NCBI GenBank assembly: GCA_034004025.1
Contig: JAVEXM010000002.1
Coordinates: 38,083-102,082, forward strand
DNA: 64,000 bases
Origin: Bacteroidales bacterium
GTDB taxonomy: Bacteria; Bacteroidota; Bacteroidia; Bacteroidales; VadinHA17
Direction of reading: 5' to 3'
Positions 41,050 through 53,674 of this stretch are shown in pieces. The translations under genes and the position numbers were made by a program. The notes beneath the pieces were generated by a model. The model saw nothing but the letters and a program-made list of their open reading frames with translations, was not told the origin of the DNA and did not search any database. Position 1 is the stretch's first letter. Each line of letters opens with the position of its first letter.

Positions 41050-44000
41050 TTATTTCCGCTCTGCTGAGATCTGACCGTACCTGTACCGTGCTGCAACAGC
41101 TACCGCTACAAGTACTCCCACAGCTATGTAAACAAAGACGGGCACAGGTACCGGGTCACCCCCGGCATAGGAATGGAGTCCCGACAGGTAATAGTTGACA
41201 CCGAAATAGGTCATCAGCACCGAGGATAGTGCAAACAGCGACAGGAGGTTAAAGGTATAGGTCTCCTTCATGCCGGGTATCATGCGCGAGTGTGTCACCA
41301 GCGTATAGACAATGATGGTGATCAGTGACCATGTCTCCTTGGGATCCCAGCCCCAGTAGCGTCCCCACGACTCATTGGCCCAGACAGCCCCCAGGAAAGT
41401 GCCGACAGTCAGGAAATAGAGCCCGAGGGTCAGCGACCTGTAGTTGATGACCGTTATCTCATCAATTACGGAGCTTATCCGTTCGCGGTTGCTGCTGTTG
41501 ACAAACAACATCATTATCAGCACTATCAGTCCCAGTATGGCTCCCAGCCCCAGGAACCCGTAGCTGCCTGTTATGACCGATACATGGAGTGTCAGCCAGT
41601 ACGACTTCAGCACCGGTACCAGGTTGGTGATCTCCGGATCCATGAAACTGAGATGCGCCACCATCAGTGTCAGTCCTGCCAGCACCGCCGTTGCCGCCAG
41701 CGTCAGCAGCGACCTCCGGCTGAAGATCAGACCGGCAAGCAGTGTTACCCACGATATGAACAGCATCGACTCATATCCGTTGCTCATCGGTGAGTGACCC
41801 GAGATGTACCACCTGATGCCAAGCCCCAGCGTGTGAAAAATAAATCCGCCGGCGATAAGTGCAGCCGGTATCTTCAGCAATACCCCCGACTGTTCTCTTC
41901 CCCTGATGATGAAGGTGATGATGACGGTTATCATTATCAGGCCAACGGTGGCATACCACGGGAAGAGCTTCTCAAATATCTTCGCCCTGTAATAGAACAG
42001 CTCCGCCTTCACCTTACCTGATGAAGGAAGCTCATAGCCGGCATGAACCCGCTGGTACTGCTTCAATGCCGAGAGAAAATCGTCAGGGTCAGCCGTGCCT
42101 TTTACGACGCTAGTGACCGACTGCACCCACATGGGTACCACGCTTATCACAAAGAGTGAGTCTTCCATGCCTATCTCATGCCTGGCGGCATCCTGAGCCA
42201 TCCCCCAGTGATCAGTACCGTCTCTCAGTGGGAATATGCGCATGAACTCACCCTTTGACATCATATAGCAAATGTTCACCCGCTCGTCCACCTTTATCAC
42301 CTCCTTGTCGAACCTGCTGCGCTCACTCTCAGCCTTTGCATAGGCCTTCTCAACGTAGGCTGACAACCTGTAACCGCCCCCCTCACCGAAGGTGACGATA
42401 TCGGAAAATGCAGCGCGCTCTCCGCTAAGTCCCAGCATCTGACGGAGCTCCTCATTTGACACCCTGATCAGAGGCACCTGCTGCCAGTGGTAGAAATCCA
42501 GAGAACAGCCAATGAAGACCTGCATTGGTGAGAGGCCGTCAAGGGTGTTCTCCCGTGCCACCTTGCGCAGTATGTCACTGCTCACAGTATAGAGAGGTTT
42601 CGTACGTCCCTTCTGATCCTGCACCAGCACCCCGCCAAAGCTGTCTGCAGCATCTTTGTCCAGCACCAGCTTCTGAGCGCTGACCGGCATCAGGGAGGCA
42701 GCAAGTGCCAGAATTATCACTGCTGCCGGCTTGCGGTATCTGCTGTTCCAGTAGCCGGGCCTCACTGTCCGGAAGAACGACCGCCTGTTCAGCAGGGTAA
42801 GGACGATGAACAGGAACAGTAGTCCGTAGCCGGCATATGTCGTAAGCATGCCTGCCGGGTCATGGTTCACCGACAGCACCGTGCCCATTTCGTCAGGGTC
42901 GTAAGACGACTGATAGAAGCGAAATCCCCGGTATTTAAGAATATGATTCATGTAAATGTCATACTGAAATCGGGTCTCATTTTCAGCATCAGCCAGGGTC
43001 ACCCTGCTTTTGAATCCTGACGGACTGTTTGAGCCGGGATAGCGATCAATCATAAAATCATCAAGGATAAGGCTGAAAGGGAGTTGCTTCATGATGCTGC
43101 CGTAACTTACCTTCACCTTCACGCTGCCCTCATCACCCTGCCATACCGATCCCCCTTGAGCCTCGTCGGTCCACAGGTATATCTTCCGTTCATAACCTGC
43201 TCCTGACAGTGTGCATTCAATGGCTCCCTCGGGACTTTCGCTGACCCTGTCAGGTGCCGGCACCACGGTGCCGTTCATGATAAGTTGCTGAGGCATTATG
43301 CGATAGCCTCCCACGGTGTAGACGGTTCCCTTTGACAGTGGTATCAGCGTGTCGGGAGCAAATATCATGGTTTGCATGTCCTGCATGCTGGTTGAACGGA
43401 TCTCCATGACGGACCTGATAAAGAATGCCGGGCTGTCACTGATCACGCTGATAACGGCATCAGTGTCCAGTCCGATTGACATCTCTCCTATCATGCCTGT
43501 CTCGCCCTGTTGAAGCACAATCATCTGACTGCTGACCATATCAGGGGTGGCAAGGAATGCTGCCACAGGTACTCCGTCGGGCGACTCCTCCACCTCTTTC
43601 ACAGCACCCGGAATGAATCTCTCCATCCTTAGGGTTATCTCTTCATCCCCTGCCTTGAGCATCTTTTTAAAGCGGCCGGCGCGCACCCCTGTCATGTCTA
43701 CGGGTGCAGAGTGGCTGGACAGTACCCTTCCGTCAGGGTCACTCACCTCGAATCTCACTTCATCGCCTGATGACCAGGTCAGAGAGGTGGTCTCTCCCTC
43801 CCTGATGTGCATCATGCCGTCATAGCCTGTATATCTTGTTATTGCTGCCCCGATGACCATCACAATGAAGGCGGCATGGAACAGCATAACCGTCAGTTTT
43901 TCCTTGCGGTAGAGCCTGAATGTTACGATCTGGCCTGCGAGGTTTACAACCAGGAGCAGGAAAAGCAGCTCAAACCAGCGGGCATTGTAGATCAGCGCCC

Positions 44001-44118
44001 TGGCACTGTCGGCACCAAAGTCATTTTCAATGAATGTGGCAACAGCCATCGCAATGGCAAGCACAATGAAAAGTATGCCCATCAATGCGGGCGTAAACAA
44101 AAACCTGATTGTCTTCAT
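41050..44118 (-). CDS. ccsBA: System II cytochrome c biogenesis protein, fused CcsB(ResB)-CcsA(ResC)
   Basis: 1022 aa. ResB-like N-terminus (TM helices plus a large periplasmic loop) and a C-terminal CcsA with the WWD motif WGRYWGWDPKETW. Confidence 0.9.
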   Translation of the reverse strand: MKTIRFLFTPALMGILFIVLAIAMAVATFIENDFGADSARALIYNARWFELLFLLLVVNLAGQIVTFRLYRKEKLTVMLFHAAFIVMVIGAAITRYTGYDGMMHIREGETTSLTWSSGDEVRFEVSDPDGRVLSSHSAPVDMTGVRAGRFKKMLKAGDEEITLRMERFIPGAVKEVEESPDGVPVAAFLATPDMVSSQMIVLQQGETGMIGEMSIGLDTDAVISVISDSPAFFIRSVMEIRSTSMQDMQTMIFAPDTLIPLSKGTVYTVGGYRIMPQQLIMNGTVVPAPDRVSESPEGAIECTLSGAGYERKIYLWTDEAQGGSVWQGDEGSVKVKVSYGSIMKQLPFSLILDDFMIDRYPGSNSPSGFKSRVTLADAENETRFQYDIYMNHILKYRGFRFYQSSYDPDEMGTVLSVNHDPAGMLTTYAGYGLLFLFIVLTLLNRRSFFRTVRPGYWNSRYRKPAAVIILALAASLMPVSAQKLVLDKDAADSFGGVLVQDQKGRTKPLYTVSSDILRKVARENTLDGLSPMQVFIGCSLDFYHWQQVPLIRVSNEELRQMLGLSGERAAFSDIVTFGEGGGYRLSAYVEKAYAKAESERSRFDKEVIKVDERVNICYMMSKGEFMRIFPLRDGTDHWGMAQDAARHEIGMEDSLFVISVVPMWVQSVTSVVKGTADPDDFLSALKQYQRVHAGYELPSSGKVKAELFYYRAKIFEKLFPWYATVGLIMITVIITFIIRGREQSGVLLKIPAALIAGGFIFHTLGLGIRWYISGHSPMSNGYESMLFISWVTLLAGLIFSRRSLLTLAATAVLAGLTLMVAHLSFMDPEITNLVPVLKSYWLTLHVSVITGSYGFLGLGAILGLIVLIMMLFVNSSNRERISSVIDEITVINYRSLTLGLYFLTVGTFLGAVWANESWGRYWGWDPKETWSLITIIVYTLVTHSRMIPGMKETYTFNLLSLFALSSVLMTYFGVNYYLSGLHSYAGGDPVPVPVFVYIAVGVLVAVAVAARYRYGQISAERK

Positions 44119-44139: not shown

Positions 44140-44835
44140 CTAGCCCTTTTCTGAGATAACGCGCAACTTGTCCTTGTCAAGGATCTTGACTGAGCGAGGC
44201 ATGGCCCTGATGATCTTTTCATTCTCCAGCTCGCCCAGGATCCTGACAACGCTTTCCTTGGCCATATTTGTCATCTCTCCGATCTCCTGACGTGTCAGGA
44301 GCATCTCATAATCATCCGAGTGGAAAACCTCATCCGCAAAGTAAAGAAGTGCTTCAGCCAGTCTGCCATGCATCTTTTTCTGGGTAAGGTTTAAAATCTT
44401 CTGATGCATCCGGAATGCCTTCTCACTCAGATCTTCTATGAACCCAAGGGCAAATCCCGGGTTTCCGGCAATTATCGTACGGATCACGTCAAAACTGATG
44501 AAACAGGCCTGTACATGAGTTATTGCAGCTACTGAATAGCAGTAGCGCGAATTCACATGGACACCCGGGCCGGCCAGTAATGTAGAGTGCTCGGCAAGAT
44601 TGATCAGCAGGTTTCTGCCGGAATAACCCTCCATGTAGACTTTTGCCAGCCCGGAGGTGAGGAAAATGGCATTTGATGACGGGGATCCCTGCTTGATTAT
44701 TATTTCCGAAGGATTAAAACTGGCCTCGTAACGGTTCCTGTTTACCAGTTCAAGCTCCTCCGCTGACAGACCCTTAAAATTGGCCCAGCATCTGTTGCAG
44801 ACCTCACAGCCTGAAATAACATTTTCGCTATACAT
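44140..44835 (-). CDS. Crp/Fnr family transcriptional regulator with N-terminal Cys cluster (FNR-like)
   Basis: cNMP-binding-like beta-roll and C-terminal HTH (ESVVRILGELENEKII). Cysteines at positions 10, 13 and 16 (CEVCNRC), plus 99 and 111. Confidence 0.85.
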   Translation of the reverse strand: MYSENVISGCEVCNRCWANFKGLSAEELELVNRNRYEASFNPSEIIIKQGSPSSNAIFLTSGLAKVYMEGYSGRNLLINLAEHSTLLAGPGVHVNSRYCYSVAAITHVQACFISFDVIRTIIAGNPGFALGFIEDLSEKAFRMHQKILNLTQKKMHGRLAEALLYFADEVFHSDDYEMLLTRQEIGEMTNMAKESVVRILGELENEKIIRAMPRSVKILDKDKLRVISEKG

Positions 44836-44913: not shown

Positions 44914-44927
44914 TTGACTTATATCAA
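44914..44927. promoter_or_regulatory. FNR/CRP-type palindromic box TTGACTTATATCAA
   Basis: Matches TTGAT-N4-ATCAA at 9 of 10 specified positions. It lies in the divergent spacer between the regulator and the six-haem gene. Confidence 0.55.
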
Positions 44928-45120
44928 TCCATTGCCTCGTACTTATCAATCTGTTGTGATTGAAATATCAATGGCAAACAGTAAGCACCGATCGAGGGTC
45001 TTGCTAACTTTCAGAACAGAAATTATGAGAGGGACACGCCCTGACCTTAATGTACCGGATAACATAAACAGAATGGCAAAATCCGGGGGTGTCATCATTC
45101 ATGAAAATAAAAATATCCAT

Positions 45121-46182
45121 ATGAAAAGAAATCTTAACCTTATCGCGATCCTGATTGCTGCAGTCATGGTAATGTCTTCCTGTGAGGGTCCCATGGGTCC
45201 GATCGGTGAGGATGGGGAAAAAGGCGACCAGGGAGAACCGGGGACGACGCTTGCCTGTGCCGATTGCCATAACAGCAACAGTCAGATGACAGCCTTCTCT
45301 GCCCAGTGGGCAGAATCGACGCATGCCACAGGAGGGAATGCCGCCTACGCGAACAGAGACGGATGCGTACAGTGTCACACAAGCCAGGGCTTTCTCGAGT
45401 ATGTAGCCGAAGGCTCGGTGGCAGACATCTCCGTACCACAGAATCCGATGCAGATCAACTGCTTCACCTGCCACAAGATCCATGAGACATACTCTTCGGA
45501 TGACTGGGCTCTCACCAAGCCCGGGGCTCAGACACTCGATGTCAAGTATGCAGGTGCCGATGTCGTATGGGATAAAGGTTCGAGCAATCAGTGCGTCTTC
45601 TGCCATCAGTCGCGCAATGTTTCACCTGCTCCTGCAGTTAACGGTACCGACTTTGAAATAACGAACAACCGTATGGGTCCGCACCACGGTCCCAACGCCA
45701 ACCTGATACTTGGAAAAACACCGTTTGAACTGCCAGGAGCCCAGGCTCCGGCAAACAATCCTCACTCCACGGCAAACGGATGTGTTACATGCCACATGTC
45801 AGCCCCATACGGATACCAGGCCGGGGGGCATAACATGGGTGTCTGGTATGACAACCACGGTAGCGAGACAATGCTGAAGACAGGCTGCACGACATGTCAC
45901 TCCAACTCAACCACACTTACAGCAATGATAAACTCATTGACTGATGATATCAGCGACAGGATGGAGGATCTGGAGGCTCAGCTCGTTGCCGCAGGTGTAT
46001 ACAATACCACAACAGAGCTGGCCAATAAGGGAACATTTGCAGCAAATGCGGTACTGGCTTACCTGAACTACAACACTGTAAAGGAAGACCGCAGCAACGG
46101 ACTCCACAATCCCGAATACATCAGGGTACTGCTCGACAATTCGATCGCTGCCATGACAGCCCTGGGATACCCTGCTCCTTAA
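45121..46182 (+). CDS. Six-haem c-type cytochrome lipoprotein with collagen-like Gly-X-Y stalk
   Basis: The ATG at 45121 gives MKRNLNLIAILIAAVMVMSSC (lipobox). GPMGPIGEDGEKGDQGEPG follows, then six CxxCH motifs (CADCH, CVQCH, CFTCH, CVFCH, CVTCH, CTTCH). The track's 5' extension from TTG 44914 has no signal peptide. Confidence 0.8.
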   Translation: MKRNLNLIAILIAAVMVMSSCEGPMGPIGEDGEKGDQGEPGTTLACADCHNSNSQMTAFSAQWAESTHATGGNAAYANRDGCVQCHTSQGFLEYVAEGSVADISVPQNPMQINCFTCHKIHETYSSDDWALTKPGAQTLDVKYAGADVVWDKGSSNQCVFCHQSRNVSPAPAVNGTDFEITNNRMGPHHGPNANLILGKTPFELPGAQAPANNPHSTANGCVTCHMSAPYGYQAGGHNMGVWYDNHGSETMLKTGCTTCHSNSTTLTAMINSLTDDISDRMEDLEAQLVAAGVYNTTTELANKGTFAANAVLAYLNYNTVKEDRSNGLHNPEYIRVLLDNSIAAMTALGYPAP

Positions 46183-46203: not shown

Positions 46204-46242
46204 AAAAAAAGCTGTTCGCCGATTGGCGGACAGCTTTTTTTT
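46204..46242. terminator. Bidirectional hairpin terminator between convergent cytochrome genes
   Basis: A7-AGCTGTTCGCC-GATT-GGCGGACAGCT-T8. Confidence 0.8.
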
Positions 46243-46256
46243 ATGTCTTACAGGAA

Positions 46257-46673
46257 CTATTTTTTCAGTGATCTCATGTAGTTGACCATATTCCAGATAT
46301 CAGTATCAGGAATCTTTTTGTCGTAAGCAGGCATCTCACCTCTCCCGAATTTGGTCTGGTAGAAAATTTCGCCATCGGTATAGCCCTGGAAAGCGGCACC
46401 CGAGAAATCACCGGGGAATGTTTTGCACATTCTTCCCTTTGGTCCGTCACCGAGGCCTGTCTTTCCGTGACAGGAAGCACAGTTCCTGGCGTATGCCATC
46501 TGGCCGGCTTTGACTGAGGCGGCGTCTGCTGCAACAGGATTGGCCATCTTCTTGTATTCGGCAGGAATTTCCCAGGGTTCTCCCTTTTTCTGCTGTGCAT
46601 TTGCAGTGACTGACATGAAGCCAAATGAAGCTGCCAGGAACATTACTGAAATAATTTTAATTGATCTTTTCAT
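46257..46673 (-). CDS. Periplasmic monohaem class I-type cytochrome c
   Basis: Signal peptide, a single CASCH, and a distal GEMPAY Met-ligand-like motif. 138 aa. Confidence 0.85.
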   Translation of the reverse strand: MKRSIKIISVMFLAASFGFMSVTANAQQKKGEPWEIPAEYKKMANPVAADAASVKAGQMAYARNCASCHGKTGLGDGPKGRMCKTFPGDFSGAAFQGYTDGEIFYQTKFGRGEMPAYDKKIPDTDIWNMVNYMRSLKK

Positions 46674-46699: not shown

Positions 46700-47320
46700 T
46701 TAGTGACTCTCCTGCCAGCCGGTAATAATACTCCTGAAATTGCTCAGGGGAGTCTTACCCATTGTACTGACATAGAGATGAATGAACAGGAATATAACCA
46801 CCAGGAATCCAAGAATGACATGGAACTGGTCCGTGAGAAAAATCCCGCTGAATCCCAGGAATTTCTTCAGTATGAATTCAGGGAACATCAGCGCCCACCC
46901 GGTGATGAAAAGCATGGGTAGGGCGAAATACATCACACCGACGTATGACACCTGCTGCAGTGGGTTGAATTTGCGTTCGCTGCTGACAGGGAATGGCGCC
47001 TCTTCACCTTTGAAGTAGCCGTATGCATAATAGCGTCCCTGTTTCCAGAGCCGCTTCCCCAGGCCCTTCATGCCCAGGAGGTAGTGTTTGCCGTTGGAGG
47101 TGAAGAGATTTCCAAAGAGAAACAGTGTATAGCTTATCGTAAGAAGCACACCGCACACATTATGTATCGAGACCGCCCTCTGGAAATTAACAACAAGTGC
47201 GTTATCCGGGTCTGAATAGAGCATGCTGAACCCCGTCACAATCAGGAAGAGGCACAGGACTGCATTGGTAAGGTGCCAGAGCCGGACCCAGGCGGGATAG
47301 TGGTAAAAATTCTTACTCAT
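46700..47320 (-). CDS. Membrane b-type cytochrome (HydC/FdnI/PhsC-like, four conserved His)
   Basis: Four or five TM helices. His residues occur in RLWHLTN, SIHNVCG and FHVILGFLVVIFLFIHLY. The start overlaps the upstream stop by 8 nt. Confidence 0.7.
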   Translation of the reverse strand: MSKNFYHYPAWVRLWHLTNAVLCLFLIVTGFSMLYSDPDNALVVNFQRAVSIHNVCGVLLTISYTLFLFGNLFTSNGKHYLLGMKGLGKRLWKQGRYYAYGYFKGEEAPFPVSSERKFNPLQQVSYVGVMYFALPMLFITGWALMFPEFILKKFLGFSGIFLTDQFHVILGFLVVIFLFIHLYVSTMGKTPLSNFRSIITGWQESH

Positions 47321-48323
47321 GAACTTGCTCCTTAGGTTTAATAACTATCCTGAAGATGGTGTGCACCAGGGCAAATGCAAGAGTCATGCCAATAATCAGC
47401 AGCCCTGCAAAGGATATCAGCTTACTGCGGTTTGCACCTATCACGTATGAGTCATTCCTGAGCATTACCCCATTGACAAATCCCTTCTCATCGCGACTCT
47501 CCTTTGCGGCATATTTGTACAGTGTCCCCATCAGTATTGAGTTCTGGCTGTGGCAGTCAGTACATCCCCTGACGGCGCTGTCTGCCGGCATGACCTCATG
47601 AGCCACCAGAACGCTGTCATTCATGCGGGTATGGCAGTCAATACATCTCACCGCTTCCAGGTGACGCTCAACATCCGGCAGCCACTCATGCTTGGGAAGC
47701 ACTATCTCAACATTTTCATCGGTGATCAGTCCCATGACATCAGCATTGCTGTGACAACGTAGACACATCTCATTTGACCGGATTATGTATTCCCTGCCTC
47801 CCTGTGTCTGCCGGGCAAGAGGATTATAATAATGCGGGTCATGACACTTCCAGCATGTAATCAGGCCGTCTGTTGCAGTATAGTGAACACTCTTCTGATA
47901 CTCCTCGTCGATCTTCTCAAACCCGTACTGTTCATAGTTCGGATCATAACCGTGACAGTCAATACATCCCCACGATGTTTCAAACCGGGCCTCTATCGAA
48001 TGAGGAAAGATTTTGAAATCCTCTGAATGACAGTCGAGACAACTGAAACTCCAGTGAACTGAGTTATAGAACATCCCCGGTATGACCAGGTTTTGCTCCG
48101 ACATCAGCTGCTTCCGTGTCATCCCCATCAATGTATCAGTAAGGGTGTAAATTAGCTTCCCGTGACACACAAGGCAATTGGTCTCGTTATCTTCGGCATA
48201 GAGGCTCAGTTCAGCTCCCCTTGTAACATGGAGGCTGTCCTGATATTCCGCCCGGGCAATTGCCTGGTGCGAGAAGACGAAGAATATAACTGTCAGACAA
48301 ACAGAATATCTAGTTAAGATCAT
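47313..48323 (-). CDS. Seven-haem c-type cytochrome with C-terminal membrane anchor
   Basis: N-terminal signal and seven CxxCH motifs (CLVCH, CLDCH, CIDCH, CWKCH, CLRCH, CIDCH, CTDCH). C-terminal TM helix LISFAGLLIIGMTLAFALVHTIF. Confidence 0.8.
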   Translation of the reverse strand: MILTRYSVCLTVIFFVFSHQAIARAEYQDSLHVTRGAELSLYAEDNETNCLVCHGKLIYTLTDTLMGMTRKQLMSEQNLVIPGMFYNSVHWSFSCLDCHSEDFKIFPHSIEARFETSWGCIDCHGYDPNYEQYGFEKIDEEYQKSVHYTATDGLITCWKCHDPHYYNPLARQTQGGREYIIRSNEMCLRCHSNADVMGLITDENVEIVLPKHEWLPDVERHLEAVRCIDCHTRMNDSVLVAHEVMPADSAVRGCTDCHSQNSILMGTLYKYAAKESRDEKGFVNGVMLRNDSYVIGANRSKLISFAGLLIIGMTLAFALVHTIFRIVIKPKEQVHE

Positions 48324-48339: not shown

Positions 48340-49176
48340 TCAGAACCTTACGGTGACGTTAAGACCTATCAGGAAGTTACCGTCACTGATGCTGTTCTGA
48401 TTGTATACAAAATTATACTGTCCAAGTATATCCTTATAGTTGGCGAAGAATATCTGGAATGCATGGGTGGGTGTACCGATCTCCCATCCGAGAGCAAGCT
48501 GAGGCTTCGGATTGAAATCCTCGTTCTCCTGCTTGTTGAACAGCTGATCGTACTCGGCGATAATACTGTGTGAGCCGGCTACATTGTACCTTGCTCCTGC
48601 CGAGATCCCGTAGTGGGCATTTTTGTACCCGATCTCAACGGCATTGAACCATATGAATGTAGGTGCAAGCTGAAGCGAAAACTTCTCACCGAACTGACGT
48701 GCAACCAGTATCTGGCTGAAGTAGGAAAGACGGTGTATCTCCCTCCAGTCGTGTGCCGGCCCGAAAGTATTCTGATTCAGAAGGTTCAAACCAACATCTC
48801 CGTAAAAAGCCAGTGACACCGGAACCGACCCCGAACTGGTCTGCTGCAACAGGGCATACTTCACTGCCACATCCTGGGCCTTGTAGTTTTTTGCAGTACC
48901 GGCACCGATAACCAGCCTGTCTGTGATGGCGTAATTGAGTCCCAGTCTTATGTTGGCCGGAGCCCACAGGCCAAACAGATCATCAAGAGCATTGTTTACC
49001 GTCCCGAACCTGTGATGTATCTCAAACTCGAGCATCCCCTTGAATGGAGTTGTAACCGTCTGGTTATCTATTAATATGCTTGTTTCGAACAGCCTTACCG
49101 GGTAATCTTCGCTCACCTGGCTGAATAGAGGCAGAAAGAGCAGGACGAGAATTACTGATGATAATATCTTTCTCAT
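48340..49176 (-). CDS. Outer-membrane-type beta-barrel protein (DUF5777-like)
   Basis: Signal peptide MRKILSSVILVLLFLPLFSQ, alternating hydrophobic beta-strand pattern, and a C-terminal ...LNVTVRF ending in Phe. The family name is from memory. Confidence 0.6.
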   Translation of the reverse strand: MRKILSSVILVLLFLPLFSQVSEDYPVRLFETSILIDNQTVTTPFKGMLEFEIHHRFGTVNNALDDLFGLWAPANIRLGLNYAITDRLVIGAGTAKNYKAQDVAVKYALLQQTSSGSVPVSLAFYGDVGLNLLNQNTFGPAHDWREIHRLSYFSQILVARQFGEKFSLQLAPTFIWFNAVEIGYKNAHYGISAGARYNVAGSHSIIAEYDQLFNKQENEDFNPKPQLALGWEIGTPTHAFQIFFANYKDILGQYNFVYNQNSISDGNFLIGLNVTVRF

Positions 49177-49202: not shown

Positions 49203-49568
49203 TTAGTCCTTTTCGGCTCCCTGGGATGCCCATATTTTTATTACGTCAGGTGCCGGTAACAACAGGGTGTCGACCTGCAGCATCTGTGACCCGAACGCAG
49301 TTATCGATGAATGAATCGAAAGAACCCTGCTGGAGGCCGGGGTGACGGTATCGACATTTGCGATCAGCTTGTCATATGTCCGGTCAACACTCCATGCTCC
49401 GTGACAGCTCTGGCAGAACGGAAAGATGTTCTCCGAGTAGCTGACAACAAGATCCTGAGGTACCTCCGGCTTTGCCCATGCATACTTCTCACATGAAGAC
49501 AGGACCACCAGGCAGGTCATTAGCATTGCTGGCAGCAATAACTTTATAATCCTCTTACTACGCTCCAT
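49203..49568 (-). CDS. Monohaem lipoprotein with PSCyt1-like (planctomycete cytochrome c) domain
   Basis: I prefer the ATG at 49568 (MERSKRIIKLLLPAMLMTCLVVLSSC lipobox). It has NIFPFCQSCHG and a C-terminal IKIWASQGA, resembling the PSCyt1 pattern. The track's 5' extension is unlikely. Confidence 0.6.
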   Translation of the reverse strand: MERSKRIIKLLLPAMLMTCLVVLSSCEKYAWAKPEVPQDLVVSYSENIFPFCQSCHGAWSVDRTYDKLIANVDTVTPASSRVLSIHSSITAFGSQMLQVDTLLLPAPDVIKIWASQGAEKD

Positions 49569-49677: not shown

Positions 49678-49691
49678 TTGACATTTATCAC
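49678..49691. promoter_or_regulatory. Second FNR/CRP-type box TTGACATTTATCAC upstream of the cytochrome operon
   Basis: Matches TTGAT-N4-ATCAA at 8 of 10 positions and shares the TTGAC half-site with the box at 44914. A minus-strand TATATTTG -7 box lies at 49595-49602. Confidence 0.45.
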
Positions 49692-49752: not shown

Positions 49753-51459
49753 TCAGTTTACCTTGAAAAGACCGAGCTCTTTCTCTTCAAATCCGTTGAT
49801 ATATCCTGATCTCATGCTGTTCTCAGAGATGGCCATGGAGACAAAGAGTTCTGCCGAAGAGGCGCGGACGGCATCGCGCTGTGCATCTTTCAGCAGCAGG
49901 TATCCCATTATGATATTGGCAGCCATCTCCACCATGCGCCGTGCATGGAAATCGGTCAGTTCATTGTTGCCGGCAGCCACTACTTCCGCAACTCTCTTCT
50001 CATAATCGCCTGTCAGGGTGATGAGCATCCTGCGCAGGTGTTCCAGCTCAGGCCTCAGTTCCGTTTTCTCGTACTCCCTCATCTGTGCAAGATATCCGCC
50101 GGTGGTCACGCCCCTGACGGCTGCGACTACCTGCAGCTGGGATGTCCCCTCATAGATGGATGTTATGCGGGCATCGCGGTAGAGTCGTTCCACGGGGAAG
50201 TCCTTTATGAATCCTGCCCCGCCGTGTATCTGAACGGCATCATAGGCAATGCTATTGCACCACTCGCTGCTGATGAGCTTGACCATGGGTGTGTAAATAT
50301 CCGCCAGCCGGGTGTTGGCCTTAAGGTCATCACGTTCCTCCTTCTCCAGCTTGCGCTCTTCGCTGATGAACGACCATGCCTTGTAGATGTCTACAAACCT
50401 TGCTGTCTCATAGAGCAGTGACCTCATTGCCTCTATGCGGACCCTCATGACGGTGAGCATCTCATACACAGGAGGAAACTGGTCTATGGTTTTACCAAAC
50501 TGCTTTCTCTCCGAGGCATATTTCCTTGCCTCCTCATATGCCGCCTGTGCTATGCCCACTGCCTGAGCCCCCACGCCCAGGCGGGCTCCGTTCATCAGTG
50601 ACATGACATACTTTATCAGCCCCATGCGCCTCTCGCCTATCAGCCTTGCAGGAGCATTTCGGAACACCAGTTCGCAGGTAGGCGAACCCTTGATCCCCAT
50701 CTTGTTTTCAATCCTCCGCACCGTCACGGCACCCTCAGCCTTGTCATAGACGAACAGCGACAGTCCGCGTCCGTCAGTGGTGCCCTCTTCCGAGCGGGCC
50801 AGCACCAGTGATATCTCTGCGTCGCCGTTGGTGATGAAGCGCTTGACGCCGTTGAGCATCCATGTGCCCCTGGCTTCATCATAGTGCGCTTTCAGCTGCA
50901 CCGCCTGGAGGTCAGACCCTGCATCAGGCTCCGTCAGATCCATGGCTGCCGTCGCCCCCCTGTTGAAGCGGGGCAGGAACTCATCTTTAAGCTCGTCAGA
51001 GGCAAATTCCAGTATGGTCTCGCCGCAATCCTGCAACCCCCATATGTTGGCGAACCCGGCATCAGCCCGGGAGACCAGCTCTGCGGCCATGACATATGGC
51101 ACCATCGGGAAGTTGAGCCCGTCATACCTGCGCGGAAAGTTCATCCCTATGACACCGGCTTTCGTCAGAGCCTCATGGTTCTCCTGCGTTCCGCGTGCAT
51201 AACGCACCCGTCCGTCAACAACCTCAGGTCCTTCATGGTCAACATCTTCAGCATTGGGGGCAATTACATCGGCACAGATGGCCCCTATTATCTCCAGCAC
51301 CCTCTCATAATTGTCCATGGCATCCTCATAATCGTGAGGGGCATAGTCGTAGTGATCCCTGTCACTGTAATCCATCTCCTTCAGCCTGACGATCTTGCGC
51401 ATCACCGGATGGTTGAGATGGAAACGCAGGTCTCTGTTGTCTGTATAAAAATTTGCCAT
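49753..51459 (-). CDS. Long-form acyl-CoA dehydrogenase
   Basis: 568 aa with ACAD N, middle and C domains (DLTEPDAGSDL, IENKMGIKGSPT, IYEGTSQLQ) plus a C-terminal extension. Adjacent to etfBA. Confidence 0.9.
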   Translation of the reverse strand: MANFYTDNRDLRFHLNHPVMRKIVRLKEMDYSDRDHYDYAPHDYEDAMDNYERVLEIIGAICADVIAPNAEDVDHEGPEVVDGRVRYARGTQENHEALTKAGVIGMNFPRRYDGLNFPMVPYVMAAELVSRADAGFANIWGLQDCGETILEFASDELKDEFLPRFNRGATAAMDLTEPDAGSDLQAVQLKAHYDEARGTWMLNGVKRFITNGDAEISLVLARSEEGTTDGRGLSLFVYDKAEGAVTVRRIENKMGIKGSPTCELVFRNAPARLIGERRMGLIKYVMSLMNGARLGVGAQAVGIAQAAYEEARKYASERKQFGKTIDQFPPVYEMLTVMRVRIEAMRSLLYETARFVDIYKAWSFISEERKLEKEERDDLKANTRLADIYTPMVKLISSEWCNSIAYDAVQIHGGAGFIKDFPVERLYRDARITSIYEGTSQLQVVAAVRGVTTGGYLAQMREYEKTELRPELEHLRRMLITLTGDYEKRVAEVVAAGNNELTDFHARRMVEMAANIIMGYLLLKDAQRDAVRASSAELFVSMAISENSMRSGYINGFEEKELGLFKVN

Positions 51460-51493
51460 CGGAATATCCTTTTGTTACTGTCAGAAAACTCTT

Positions 51494-52540
51494 TTACCTG
51501 GCATTTGCCTTATAGTGCTTAATGAGCTTCGGGATTATCTCTGCCACATCTCCGTTTATCACGTAGTCGGCCATGCTGTTAATGGGCGCCATTGCATCAT
51601 TGTTGATGGCAATGATCTTTCCGCTCTGGCTCATGCCCGCCGTGTGCTGTATCTGTCCTGAGATGCCGCATGCGATGTAGAGCTTCGGCCGCACCGTCAC
51701 CCCTGTCTGCCCCACCTGCCGCTCGTGGCCGGCAAATCCTGCATCCACGGCTGCCCTGGAGGCAGCCACCTCACCCCCGAGGACGGAGGCCAGCTCGTAC
51801 AACATGTTGAAATTCTCCCTTGAGCCCATGCCGTAACCGCCGGAGACGATTATCTGTGCCGACTTGATGTCAACCCTCCGGGCCTCCATATGCCGTTCGA
51901 TTATCTCCACGGCGAGGTCCTCAGGCCTTATGAAGTCAGATACATTTATTCTCTTCAGTTCACCGCGGTAGTTCCTGTTCATGATCTCCTTCTTCATCAC
52001 CCCCTCACGCACCGTGGCCATCTGGGGACGGTGATCGGGATTGATGATTGTGGCAATGATGTTACCCCCGAAGGCGGGTCTGATCTGGTAGAGAAGGTTT
52101 TTGTAGGTGGTGTCTGTCTTTTTGACGTAGTGATCACCTATCTCGAGGCCTGTGCAGTCTGCCGTCAGGCCGCTGTGCAGTGCCGAGGAGACCCTCGGGC
52201 CCAGGTCGCGCCCGGTGGTTGTGGCTCCCATAAGGGCTATCTGCGGCTGCTCCTGCCTGAAGAGGCCGACGATGACAGAGGTATAGGGCATGGTACGGTA
52301 ATGTTCCAGCACCGGGTCATCGGCCAGGTGCACCACATCGGTGCCGTAAGGGAATAGCTCCTTCTCAATGCCCTCAATGCCGCTGCCAAGCACCACTGCC
52401 TCGAGCCTGCAGCCGAGCGTGTTGGCCAGCGACCGGCCTTTGGTCAGCAGTTCGAGACTCACATCGACAGGCTTGCCCTCATCAAGCTCACAAAAGACGA
52501 ATAGACTGTTCACTTTGCGGATATTTTTTCTGTTGATCAA
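51494..52540 (-). CDS. etfA: Electron transfer flavoprotein subunit alpha
   Basis: C-terminal FAD-binding region PKLYIACGISGQIQHTAGM. Confidence 0.9.
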   Translation of the reverse strand: MINRKNIRKVNSLFVFCELDEGKPVDVSLELLTKGRSLANTLGCRLEAVVLGSGIEGIEKELFPYGTDVVHLADDPVLEHYRTMPYTSVIVGLFRQEQPQIALMGATTTGRDLGPRVSSALHSGLTADCTGLEIGDHYVKKTDTTYKNLLYQIRPAFGGNIIATIINPDHRPQMATVREGVMKKEIMNRNYRGELKRINVSDFIRPEDLAVEIIERHMEARRVDIKSAQIIVSGGYGMGSRENFNMLYELASVLGGEVAASRAAVDAGFAGHERQVGQTGVTVRPKLYIACGISGQIQHTAGMSQSGKIIAINNDAMAPINSMADYVINGDVAEIIPKLIKHYKANAR

Positions 52541-53400
52541 CCAATTGTATGACTCTCAAGCAACTCCTTAACGAGGGCTTCAATGTCCCTGTCGGATGAG
52601 GTGAGCTGTTTTGTCTCTTTCGACTGAAGTATGACGTTGTCTATCTCCTTCACCTTGGTGGGTGAACCCGACAGACCCAGCTGCTCCGTGTCAGCACCGA
52701 CAGCCTCTGTCCCCCACTCGGTAATACGCACATTGGGTCTGCTGCCGGCTATGTAGTCGGCGTTCTCAGCCTGCAACTCAGTGTCAGTGCGGGCATATTT
52801 GTACTTCATCACAAGGCGGGCGTTGCGGTAGCGGCATGCGGGGGCGGTACCGTTGACGGTCACCACCAGCGGCAGCGGGGCGGAGAGGGTCTCAACGCCG
52901 CGCTCAAGCCTTCTGCGTACCACCAGTCGCTCATTCTCAAAGTGCATCTCCTCGGCATAGGTCACCTGCGGCCATCCCAGCTTCTCCGCTATCTGCGGCC
53001 CCACCTGTGCAGTGTCACCGTCGATGGCCTGACGCCCCCCGAGGACCAGGTCAGGCGCCAGCCTGCGGATGGCCAGCGTCAGGGCATAGGATGTGGCAAG
53101 CGTGTCAGAGCCTGCAAAAGCCCTGTCGGTCAGCAGTACCCCGTCATCGGCACCGCGGTAGAGACCCTCGCGGATGATCTCGGCTGCACGCCCCGGCCCC
53201 ATGGTAAGAACCGTCACCGTCGTGCCCTCATATTGCTCTTTGATACGCAGAGCCTGCTCCAGCGCATTCAGATCCTCCGGGTTGAAGATGGCGGGCAGGA
53301 CACTCCTGTTGACGGTGCCGTCAGCTTTCATGGCGTCAGGCCCCACATTGCGTGTGTCAGGTACCTGCTTCGCCAGGACAACGATCTTGATTCCTTTCAT
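52537..53400 (-). CDS. etfB: Electron transfer flavoprotein subunit beta
   Basis: MKGIKIVVLAKQVPD N-terminus (ATG at 53400 preferred). 4-nt overlap with etfA. Confidence 0.9.
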   Translation of the reverse strand: MKGIKIVVLAKQVPDTRNVGPDAMKADGTVNRSVLPAIFNPEDLNALEQALRIKEQYEGTTVTVLTMGPGRAAEIIREGLYRGADDGVLLTDRAFAGSDTLATSYALTLAIRRLAPDLVLGGRQAIDGDTAQVGPQIAEKLGWPQVTYAEEMHFENERLVVRRRLERGVETLSAPLPLVVTVNGTAPACRYRNARLVMKYKYARTDTELQAENADYIAGSRPNVRITEWGTEAVGADTEQLGLSGSPTKVKEIDNVILQSKETKQLTSSDRDIEALVKELLESHTIG

Positions 53401-53674
53401 ATCTCGTCTCACTGTTGAAGGGGCAAATATAACAATAAAACCATGCCTGCAAACACCAGCTTGCAGTTTTTGAGAGTCCGTTCGAAAGAGTTAAGCCTTT
53501 TATATGACTGTTATACTGTGCATTATAGAGTTGACCGCGGACTCAGTCCAGGACTGGTCGAACTTGCATGGCCCGTGGTGCAGCCTGATGCTGAAGGATA
53601 TAATTTTACATGAGCATGATTTAAATTATTGAATTAACTTCGCCCGCCGGATAATTGTCCGCATCACCTTCAAA

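Follow-up and report, generated by a model that had tools for sequence, protein, structure and literature searches.

The window analysed here, a stretch of 64,000 nucleotides from a Bacteroidales bacterium of the VadinHA17 lineage (GenBank assembly GCA_034004025.1, contig JAVEXM010000002.1, positions 38,083 to 102,082 of the forward strand), encodes a lipoprotein with six haem motifs at 45121..46182 (+ strand; 353 amino acids), which is related to the cell-surface metal reductase OcwA and whose haem domain is connected to the lipid anchor by a collagen-like run of G-X-Y triplets. The protein belongs to a large, unnamed family, of which the G-X-Y stalk is a hallmark. The preferred reading, which is tentative and falls a little short of an even chance, is that of an OcwA-like terminal reductase, lipid-anchored and probably trimeric, which would be induced under anoxia and reside at the outer membrane. 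The evidence bearing on it comes from the haem motifs and their alignment to solved structures, the conservation of the stalk, the linkage to a partner operon and the regulatory boxes in front of both transcription units.

Anatomy of the hexahaem lipoprotein

The product starts with a type II signal peptide, whose n-region, hydrophobic core and lipobox (MKRNLNLIAILIAAVMVMSS-C21, ending VMSSC21) are those of a signal peptidase II substrate; the lipid cysteine is present in 99% of 140 representative homologues. C21 is followed by E22 and by the uninterrupted run GPM GPI GED GEK GDQ GEP G (residues 23-41, nt 45187-45243), and the first cysteines of the six CxxCH motifs are located at residues 46, 82, 114, 158, 221 and 256. 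The protein contains 13 cysteines in total, one for the lipid and twelve for the haems, and no CxxCK. The segment GPHHGP covers residues 186-191, and the C-terminus carries ...KEDRSNGLHNPEYIRVLLDNS (...SNGLHNPEYIRVLLDNS). An earlier note on this DNA had described these features, including the GLHNP helix and a haem count that corresponds neither to NrfA (five haems) nor to the octahaem enzymes, and the translation agrees with it in every position. Two longer versions of the gene, an open reading frame (ORF) of 422 amino acids starting from TTG at 44914 and the 393-amino-acid gene call P0002, are over-extended, because the homologues begin at the MKR... signal peptide. The elements of the gene are as follows:

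45121..45183, + strand: signal peptide II with lipobox and lipid Cys21, as read from the sequence (C21 in 99% of the 140 representatives)
45187..45243, + strand: collagen-like (G-X-Y)6-G tether, from the translation
45256..45270, + strand: haem 1, CADCH; equals OcwA haem 4 and ONR haem 3 by collinearity
45364..45378, + strand: haem 2, CVQCH(TSQGF); aligns with OcwA CLKCHSAEAY
45460..45474, + strand: haem 3, CFTCH(KIH121); a CHxxH motif as in OcwA and ONR, unlike NrfA
45592..45606, + strand: haem 4, CVFCH(QSR); Q163 and R165 conserved where NrfA has CHVEYY
45676..45693, + strand: GPHHGP His-His motif; aligns with OmhA GVHH and, by position, with HH380/381 of OcwA and the Q-H(catalytic)-P of NrfA
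45781..45795, + strand: haem 5, CVTCH(M); equals NrfA haem 4
45886..45900, + strand: haem 6, CTTCH; equals NrfA haem 5 and is CX4CH in some relatives
45907..46161, + strand: C-terminal three-helix region including GLHNP (46099-46113); aligns with the helices of OcwA, OmhA and ONR

Placement in the NrfA/ONR/OcwA superfamily

Profile and structure searches assign the hexahaem protein to the NrfA/ONR/OcwA multihaem superfamily, in which OcwA of Thermincola potens (PDB 6I5B) and OmhA of Carboxydothermus ferrireducens (PDB 6QVM) are the nearest solved structures; both are multihaem terminal reductases of the cell surface. A profile of close homologues matches NrfA (3ubr, E 2e-6) and ONR (8rv0, E 9e-5), and a profile of diverse homologues (A2) matches OcwA (6i5b, E 1.5e-15) and OmhA (6qvm, E 6.5e-12) as well as NrfA (3ubr, E 1.8e-11), ONR (8rv0, E 2.4e-8) and many other entries of NrfA and TvNiR. 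The AlphaFold2 (AF2) monomer model has a mean predicted local distance difference test score (pLDDT) of 71.6, which rises to 86-99 in the C-terminal third, where helices are formed by residues 263-291, 308-323 and 331-347. In a Foldseek search with this model, the top match is OcwA (TMq 0.47, root mean square deviation 7.2, probability 1.0), followed by TvNiR, NrfA and MccA; beyond these, Foldseek returned no meaningful matches. The C-terminal segment SNGLHNPEY aligns with SDGFHNPEQ of ONR, SVGFHNPDQ of TvNiR, SNGVHNYDL of OcwA and SHGIHNTAL of OmhA. The resemblance to a GxHNP helix proposed in the earlier note thus holds in the profile alignments, but the closest kin are OcwA and OmhA rather than NrfA or HAO.

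Alignments of the protein to OcwA, ONR, NrfA and the NrfA of its own genome are collinear. Haem 2 (CVQCHTSQGF) falls on CLKCHSAEAY of OcwA, which is OcwA haem 5 or NrfA haem 1 and thereby the active-site position; haem 3 (CFTCHKIH) aligns with CQVCHASH of OcwA and CIHCHDPH of ONR; and haems 4, 5 (CVTCHM) and 6 correspond to CTQCH, CVDCHM and CSSCH of OcwA, respectively. The motifs of haems 2 to 6 are spaced by 32/44/63/35 residues, parallel to those of E. coli NrfA, which lie at about 122/160/209/282/314 with spacings of 38/49/73/32. An N-terminal HMMER alignment with the close-family profile, in which haem 1 of the query is placed on haem 2 of NrfA (E 0.82), was rejected in favour of this collinear map, which is supported by OcwA and by the spacings.

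The protein shares with OcwA and OmhA the C-terminal pentahaem module, a CxxCH motif at the active-site haem, a His-His pair ahead of the penultimate haem (profile alignments to 6i5b and 6qvm), the GxHN three-helix bundle and anchoring in the cell envelope. It differs from them in having six haems instead of nine or eleven, since the N-terminal c554-like tetrahaem module with its second open haem is gone except for one haem ahead of the pentahaem module, and no second HH motif is found. Furthermore, its host is diderm and its tether consists of a lipid and a collagen-like run, whereas OcwA and OmhA reside in the cell wall or S-layer of Gram-positive bacteria; the second histidine of the pair is replaced by tyrosine in 27% of the relatives, and the gene is associated with an operon for an outer-membrane barrel. 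In our reading, the protein is a pruned, OcwA-like protein composed of an NrfA-type five-haem module, a C-terminal three-helix bundle and one preceding haem, and this architecture with its CxxCH and distal His-His site explains both the missing CxxCK and the count of six haems. OcwA and OmhA belong to clade 3 of a published analysis, in which pruning of the OcwA/ONR scaffold was proposed (PMC9250108).

With NrfA, ONR and TvNiR, the protein has in common the parallel haem spacing, the aligned distal histidines, the CHM motif and the C-terminal helices. In contrast to NrfA, it is a lipoprotein with an additional N-terminal haem; CxxCK occurs in none of 269 relatives, CHVEYY with the catalytic tyrosine is replaced by CHQSRN, the K-x-Q-H-P motif by GPHHGP, and His188 occupies the position of Gln263 at the NrfA calcium site. 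The score against the NrfA family Cytochrom_C552 (PF02335) is 21.8 bits (E 1e-4) and lies below the gathering threshold of 24.1, and NF008339 gives 15.4 bits against a cut-off of 595. With six instead of eight motifs and only its C-terminal part aligned, the protein is not an octahaem ONR or HAO either. A canonical nrfH-nrfA pair is encoded on another contig of the same genome (C72, 20703-22746; CWTCK, CHVEYYF, KAQHPDYE, SFHAP), which gives the organism a standard enzyme for nitrite ammonification besides the cluster described here, and because of this pair and the family cut-offs that are not reached, the hexahaem protein is not the nitrite reductase of the organism. A match to the MtrC/OmcA family PF22113 (35.4 bits, gathering threshold 30) covers residues 36-122 only, the MtrC profile match (E 2.5e-5) lies on the haem motifs, and no chain of the MtrC family is among the top 50 Foldseek matches.

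Haem ligands and the putative active site

In the 140 representatives, exactly six histidines outside the haem motifs are at least 96% conserved, namely H68, H121, H188, H215, H237 and H329. Three of them fall on distal-ligand positions of NrfA (H215 on GIH, H237 on TDH and H329 on FHxP), and H68 aligns with TGHAT of OcwA. H121 is the second histidine of CHxxH, which is present in OcwA and ONR and absent from NrfA; it is assigned to haem 1, because this histidine occurs where a haem precedes the active-site haem. GPH188H189GP aligns with GVHH of OmhA and matches Q263-H264 of NrfA. H188 is conserved in 99% of the representatives, while position 189 is histidine in 67% and tyrosine in 27%. Q163 (95%) and R165 (91%) follow haem 4 at the place of the catalytic tyrosine of NrfA. 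In the cell-surface terminal reductase OcwA, haem 5 is pentacoordinate and faces the non-bonding pair HH380/381 (PMC6703420; PMC9250108). By analogy, five bis-His haems and one active-site-type haem 2, with a pocket formed by H188, H189 (or Tyr), Q163 and R165, are predicted for the hexahaem protein, and in our reading H68, H121, H215, H237 and H329 would complete the coordination of the other five haems; a ligation of the haem 2 iron by H188 is likewise compatible with the sequence. A first interpretation, according to which all haems are bis-His coordinated and no active site exists, was withdrawn, as H188/H189 correspond to the non-bonding distal His-His pair by alignment to OmhA and to the HH of OcwA by position.

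Size and spread of the family

A word-indexed search recovered at least 1170 homologues in 90% clusters, and an exhaustive search of a 50%-cluster library yielded 1232 representatives at E<=1e-3, among them 227 at E<=1e-30, nearly all of which have a length of 330-400 amino acids. The lipid cysteine, all six haem motifs and the histidines are 96-100% conserved in the 140 representatives. Because the homologues are this numerous and the motifs conserved, the architecture is not a product of chance. The members are named 'collagen-like protein', 'cytochrome c3 family protein' or 'hypothetical' in their source databases, or carry automatic NrfA labels, and Pfam and NCBIfam return only generic multihaem matches for the hexahaem protein. 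Relatives are encoded in 297 stretches of GTDB species genomes. The best 80 of these 297 stem almost exclusively from metagenome-assembled genomes of uncultured Bacteroidales and Bacteroidota, including Marinilabiliaceae; the exceptions among these 80 are a contig assigned to Neomarinimicrobiota and a short one that bears the label Geobacter sp. When the order to which the window belongs was sampled evenly, a relative was found in 36 of 201 genomes and 34 of 168 genera (~18%). The genome of the window itself (2.97 Mb, 51.7% GC, 91% complete) contains a single copy and only about six multihaem ORFs. One ORF of this genome encodes 601 amino acids (C159, 3841-5646) and combines four CxxCH motifs in a NapC/NirT-like N-terminal part with a C-terminal part resembling the fold of formylglycine-generating, sulfatase-modifying enzymes and with a QQSAVGS-repeat tail. 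In two metagenomic relatives, P0128 (797 aa) and P0246 (721 aa), the stalked hexahaem module is fused to a C-terminal extension with seven more CxxCH motifs, which in P0128 is separated from the hexahaem module by an Ig-like Big_7 domain.

The collagen-like tether

At least three uninterrupted G-X-Y triplets are located between the lipid cysteine and the first haem cysteine in 235 of 243 lipoproteins of the family (97%). The earlier note had made its stalk depend on the retention of this run by the orthologues; the run is indeed retained, but its length varies from 3 to 16 triplets with a median of 7. It begins at position +2 (C-E-G) in 182 and at +4 (C-T-K-E-G) in 38 of the proteins and ends 1-4 residues ahead of the first haem cysteine, and the whole tether therefore consists of G-X-Y triplets. 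Proline makes up 35% of the X positions, and aspartate and alanine make up 30% and 20% of the Y positions. The stalks of orthologues differ by whole triplets. P0205, the longest member, exceeds the gathering threshold of the Pfam family Collagen (PF01391; 35.9 versus 27.2 bits), whereas the hexahaem protein of the window stays below it, as its run is too short. Eight of the 243 lipoproteins lack the run. In P0269, a member that is not a lipoprotein, the N-terminus is formed by an SLH domain in its place (PF00395, E 1.8e-10).

Some loci encode tandem hexahaem paralogues (L092, 8001-10755; L003, 8001-10311; L045; L060), which have diverged from each other but possess nearly identical signal peptides. 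Within each pair the stalks are equally long: both comprise 16 triplets in L092, the longest of the family, and both comprise 3 in L003, L045 and L060. Such pairs point to hetero-oligomers or to gene conversion at the 5' end, and the matched lengths fit co-assembly or a shared geometric constraint.

Uninterrupted G-X-Y triplets with a preference for proline at X, charged residues at Y and a variable number of repeats are also found in Scl1/2 and BclA, in which they form a trimeric stalk that projects a globular head and in which the number of repeats differs between strains. The run of the hexahaem family, however, comprises 3-16 instead of tens of triplets, starts one residue after the lipidated cysteine and carries a multihaem head. 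We infer that the run forms a short triple helix. Such a helix, which would be about 5 nm long with six triplets, would tie three lipid anchors together and keep a trimer of haem domains at a set distance from the membrane. Alternatively, the run could be an extended, flexible spacer without a triple helix, and the cytochrome could be a monomer or, like NrfA and OcwA, a dimer formed via its C-terminal helices. Only six triplets are present here and three in a whole clade, there is no hydroxyproline machinery, and about 3% of the lipoprotein members as well as the SLH variant do without the run; OcwA and NrfA are dimers (PMC6703420). A spacer, however, needs no glycine at every third position, yet the register is uninterrupted in the 235 proteins across 30-100% identity. 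In addition, the run starts at a fixed offset from the lipid cysteine, proline is enriched at X, and tandem paralogues have stalks of equal length both at 3 and at 16 triplets. Other members of the superfamily, such as HAO and MccA, commonly form trimers. This question stands apart from those of location and substrate, and a mere spacer is considered doubtful, perhaps a one-in-a-few case.

Gene neighbourhood and partner operon

The hexahaem gene lies next to a Crp/Fnr-type regulator and converges on a partner operon for electron-transfer and outer-membrane proteins. The locus comprises:

41050..44118, - strand: fused CcsB/ResB-CcsA cytochrome c maturation protein, 1022 aa (PF05140 ResB, PF01578 and TIGR03144 above cut-off)
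44140..44835, - strand: Crp/Fnr-family regulator with cysteines C10, C13, C16 and C111 (PF00027, PF13545)
44914..44927, no strand assigned: FNR/CRP-type box TTGACTTATATCAA (TTGA-N6-TCAA) upstream of the hexahaem gene
46204..46241, no strand assigned: perfect hairpin with a 17-bp stem and adjoining A- and T-runs, in the gap that separates the hexahaem gene from the convergent cytochrome c gene
46257..46673, - strand: periplasmic monohaem class I cytochrome c (PF13442, PF00034)
46700..47320, - strand: dihaem-type cytochrome b, PhsC/HydC-like and CbcB-like (PF01292; NF011582, 172.8 bits)
47313..48323, - strand: seven-haem cytochrome c with a C-terminal transmembrane helix, CbcA-like (seven CxxCH; multihaem Pfam matches)
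48340..49176, - strand: DUF5777 outer-membrane beta-barrel (PF19089, E 7e-71)
49203..49568, - strand: small lipoprotein with a single haem motif (CQSCH), encoded by the first gene of the partner operon; where all genes share one strand, as in L076, it directly follows the hexahaem gene and precedes DUF5777
49678..49691, no strand assigned: second FNR-type box, GTGATAAATGTCAA on the gene strand, at about -120 from the operon start

The hairpin looks like a bidirectional intrinsic terminator for both convergent genes. The flanks are complete in 48 loci. Of these, 46 each contain the cytochrome b and the seven-haem cytochrome c next to the hexahaem gene, 45 each contain DUF5777 and the Crp/Fnr regulator, and 41 each contain CcsBA and the monohaem cytochrome c; the small monohaem lipoprotein, a short and fast-evolving protein, was detected in 28. 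In distant loci, the genes form a single same-strand operon in the order hexahaem protein, small lipoprotein, DUF5777, cytochrome c, seven-haem cytochrome c, cytochrome b, ResB and CcsA (L076), and the minimal recurrent unit consists of the regulator, one or more hexahaem genes, the small lipoprotein and DUF5777 (L089, L092). About half of the close loci contain an inserted pair of NrfD-like and NrfC-like 4Fe-4S proteins. This insert, which is absent from the lineage of the window, also includes an unannotated protein of about 240-290 amino acids and is located between the cytochrome c and b genes (L001, 9627-12798; L005, 9584-12781). An acyl-CoA dehydrogenase is encoded directly upstream of the cytochrome operon in 28 of the 48 loci, and EtfA lies beside it in 14 of them (window, 49753-53412; L007-L062). 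The arrangement could simply reflect synteny, or it could indicate where the electrons come from.

The pair of cytochrome b and seven-haem cytochrome c has the exact architecture of CbcBA of Geobacter, in which a dihaem cytochrome b and a seven-haem cytochrome c with a C-terminal transmembrane helix serve as quinol oxidase for low-potential extracellular acceptors (bioRxiv 10.1101/2021.04.15.440034). The AF2 model of DUF5777 (pLDDT 85.5) shows about 12-14 strands and ends in phenylalanine, and Foldseek relates it to NanC/KdgM, OmpG, COG4313, FapF and Tsx; DUF5777 is thus predicted to be a small channel. The combination of a barrel, a cytochrome on the periplasmic side and a lipoprotein cytochrome echoes porin-cytochrome complexes. 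In contrast to MtrAB and OmaB/OmbB, however, the barrel has only about 12-14 strands and its partner a single haem, so that no haem wire could pass through the porin; an MtrB-like sheath of a porin-cytochrome complex was ruled out for DUF5777 by the size of the barrel.

Regulation

The box TTGA-N6-TCAA is found upstream of the hexahaem gene in 62 of 77 orthologous loci, mostly at about -128 (background 0.023 per 300 bp). In the lineage closest to the window (L007-L010), its distance to the start codon (-207 to -220) exceeds that of all other lineages by about 80 nt, which implies that a leader segment was inserted there (44914-45120 in the window). Upstream of the partner operon, the strict box is absent, and only the one-mismatch form xTGA-N6-TCAA is conserved, at -114 to -126 in 31 of 32 orthologous loci and in the window (background 0.08 per 250 bp). 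In the adjacent regulator, C10, C13 and C111 are invariant or nearly so (C10 in 60 of 61 orthologues) and C16 is present in 41 of 61, a cysteine pattern that suggests an FNR-like protein. Since both units share such boxes and lie next to an FNR-like regulator, the two convergent units form one regulon, which is most likely switched on under anoxia.

Location and function

Lipoproteins of Bacteroidota are exported to the surface by a lipoprotein export signal (LES) that consists of K-(D/E)2 or Q-A-(D/E)2 directly after the lipid cysteine (PMC5080379). The hexahaem protein has C-E-G-P-M-G and many relatives have C-T-K-E-G at this place, neither of which corresponds to the signal, and the suggestion of the earlier note that the acidic residues after the lipid cysteine act as a surface-export signal does not agree with the published consensus. 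The only protein with C-S-K-D-E is P0175, a homologue without G-X-Y triplets, whose C-S-K-D-E-N-E-D-E matches K-(D/E)2 and which has kept the small lipoprotein and DUF5777 downstream. A location of the hexahaem protein at the outer membrane or the cell surface is only hinted at, by this homologue, by the SLH domain of P0269 and by the linkage to the barrel, and would have to be regarded as provisional.

In the proposed pathway, electrons would pass from menaquinol to the CbcBA-like pair of cytochrome b and seven-haem cytochrome c in the inner membrane, then via the monohaem cytochrome c to an outer-membrane unit of DUF5777, the small monohaem lipoprotein and the stalked hexahaem protein, and finally to an acceptor on or outside the outer membrane, for example Fe(III) or Mn(IV) phases, humics or shuttles. 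The anatomy of the protein, its homologies, the conservation of the stalk, the linkage and the regulatory boxes are observed; the triple helix and the trimer, the open coordination of haem 2, the position at the outer membrane or surface, the direction of electron flow and the acceptor are assumed here. It is tempting to speculate, although this is distinctly doubtful, that the hexahaem protein constitutes, together with the DUF5777 barrel of 12-14 strands and the small monohaem lipoprotein, a new and minimal electron conduit across the outer membrane of Bacteroidota, in which the single haem would be plugged into the barrel like a split Cyc2, the fused cytochrome-porin of iron oxidisers. It would hand the electrons to an OcwA-like trimer at the surface, which would stand beyond the lipopolysaccharide on its collagen helix, and the number of triplets (3-16) would be adapted to how thick the envelope is.

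Several points weigh against a trimeric reductase at the outer membrane. Because the canonical LES is lacking, the hexahaem protein would by default face the periplasm. No obvious trans-outer-membrane haem chain is encoded at the locus, and DUF5777, which resembles small solute channels of 12-14 strands, could not sheath an MtrA-like haem wire. Six conserved additional histidines for six haems would fit an electron-transfer protein with bis-His coordination throughout equally well. Residues 11-71 have pLDDT values below 50 in the AF2 monomer (about 30 for the tether), and six triplets, or three as in one clade, make a short run for a triple helix that has to form on its own. Finally, all family members that were found originate from uncultured organisms.

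The main alternative, considered less likely than the preferred reading, is a terminal reductase in the periplasm that acts on a small soluble substrate, for instance an N or S oxyanion, hydroxylamine, nitric oxide, selenite or a metal chelate, and for which DUF5777 would be the substrate channel across the outer membrane. The lipoprotein would then be suspended by its stalk from a membrane and reach into the periplasm, with haem 2, H188/H189, Q163 and R165 as the catalytic site and CbcBA- or NrfCD-like modules feeding it from menaquinol. Apart from the missing export signal, this alternative is favoured by the similarity of DUF5777 to the substrate-specific channels NanC/KdgM, OmpG, Tsx and COG4313, by the NrfA active-site position, which is kept together with a conserved polar pocket, by the small set of about six multihaem ORFs in the genome and by the NrfD and NrfC-like iron-sulfur pair in about half of the orthologous loci, as in NrfABCD, where this pair serves a periplasmic reductase. 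Furthermore, OcwA reduces nitrite and hydroxylamine in vitro (PMC6703420). However, the genome already possesses a canonical NrfHA, the catalytic tyrosine and the CxxCK lysine of NrfA are absent with His188 at the calcium-site glutamine position, and the closest solved relatives are cell-surface reductases. A rigid collagen stalk, a dedicated barrel and a monohaem lipoprotein are foreign to the known periplasmic reductases, and the homologue P0175 carries the canonical LES.

Electrons could also flow inwards, in which case the hexahaem protein would take them up from a donor outside the cell or in the periplasm, for instance Fe(II), a partner cell or reduced humics, and the quinone pool or an oxidase would receive them by way of the cytochrome c and the b/c module. 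The small barrel combined with a monohaem lipoprotein recalls Cyc2, and the class I cytochrome c is of a kind that supplies oxidases. This direction is nevertheless improbable, as the FNR-type regulator and the conserved boxes point to anaerobic induction, the closest relatives are reductases, and the known role of a CbcBA-like module is to oxidise quinol when acceptors of low potential are used. An ordinary nitrite or hydroxylamine enzyme of the NrfA, ONR or HAO type with six haems, for which the weak Cytochrom_C552 match and the ONR matches in the PDB could be quoted, can be dismissed as highly improbable, given the sub-threshold scores for both NrfA families, the complete absence of CxxCK from the 269 relatives, the replaced tyrosine motif and a haem count that is wrong for every one of these families.

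Significance

The superfamily and the OcwA-type site are known already. New, as far as the searchable literature tells, are the pruned hexahaem protein in diderm Bacteroidota, the collagen-like, lipid-anchored stalk and the conserved partnership with DUF5777, a monohaem lipoprotein and a CbcBA-like module: no description of a collagen-like stalk on a multihaem cytochrome was found there, and nothing relevant on DUF5777, on multihaem lipoproteins of Bacteroidales for extracellular electron transfer or on OcwA in Bacteroidota. The family is a clear case from nature of the scaffold pruning that was proposed previously for OcwA/ONR (PMC9250108). If the structural reading holds true, a collagen triple helix that serves as lipid-anchored stalk of a multihaem protein would represent a new way to position redox proteins in the cell envelope.

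Uncultured Bacteroidales rank with the most abundant fermenters of sediments, wet soils and digesters, and models of them usually include no respiratory electron sinks other than fumarate and nitrite. The FNR-controlled, self-contained cytochrome module described here is present in ~18% of the sampled genera of the order and in 297 species-level genomes, and its terminal protein is nearest to the only structurally known surface metal reductases of Gram-positive bacteria. If it functions as an extracellular or a novel periplasmic reductase, the roles that are expected of these bacteria in iron, humic or nitrogen and sulfur cycling would change.

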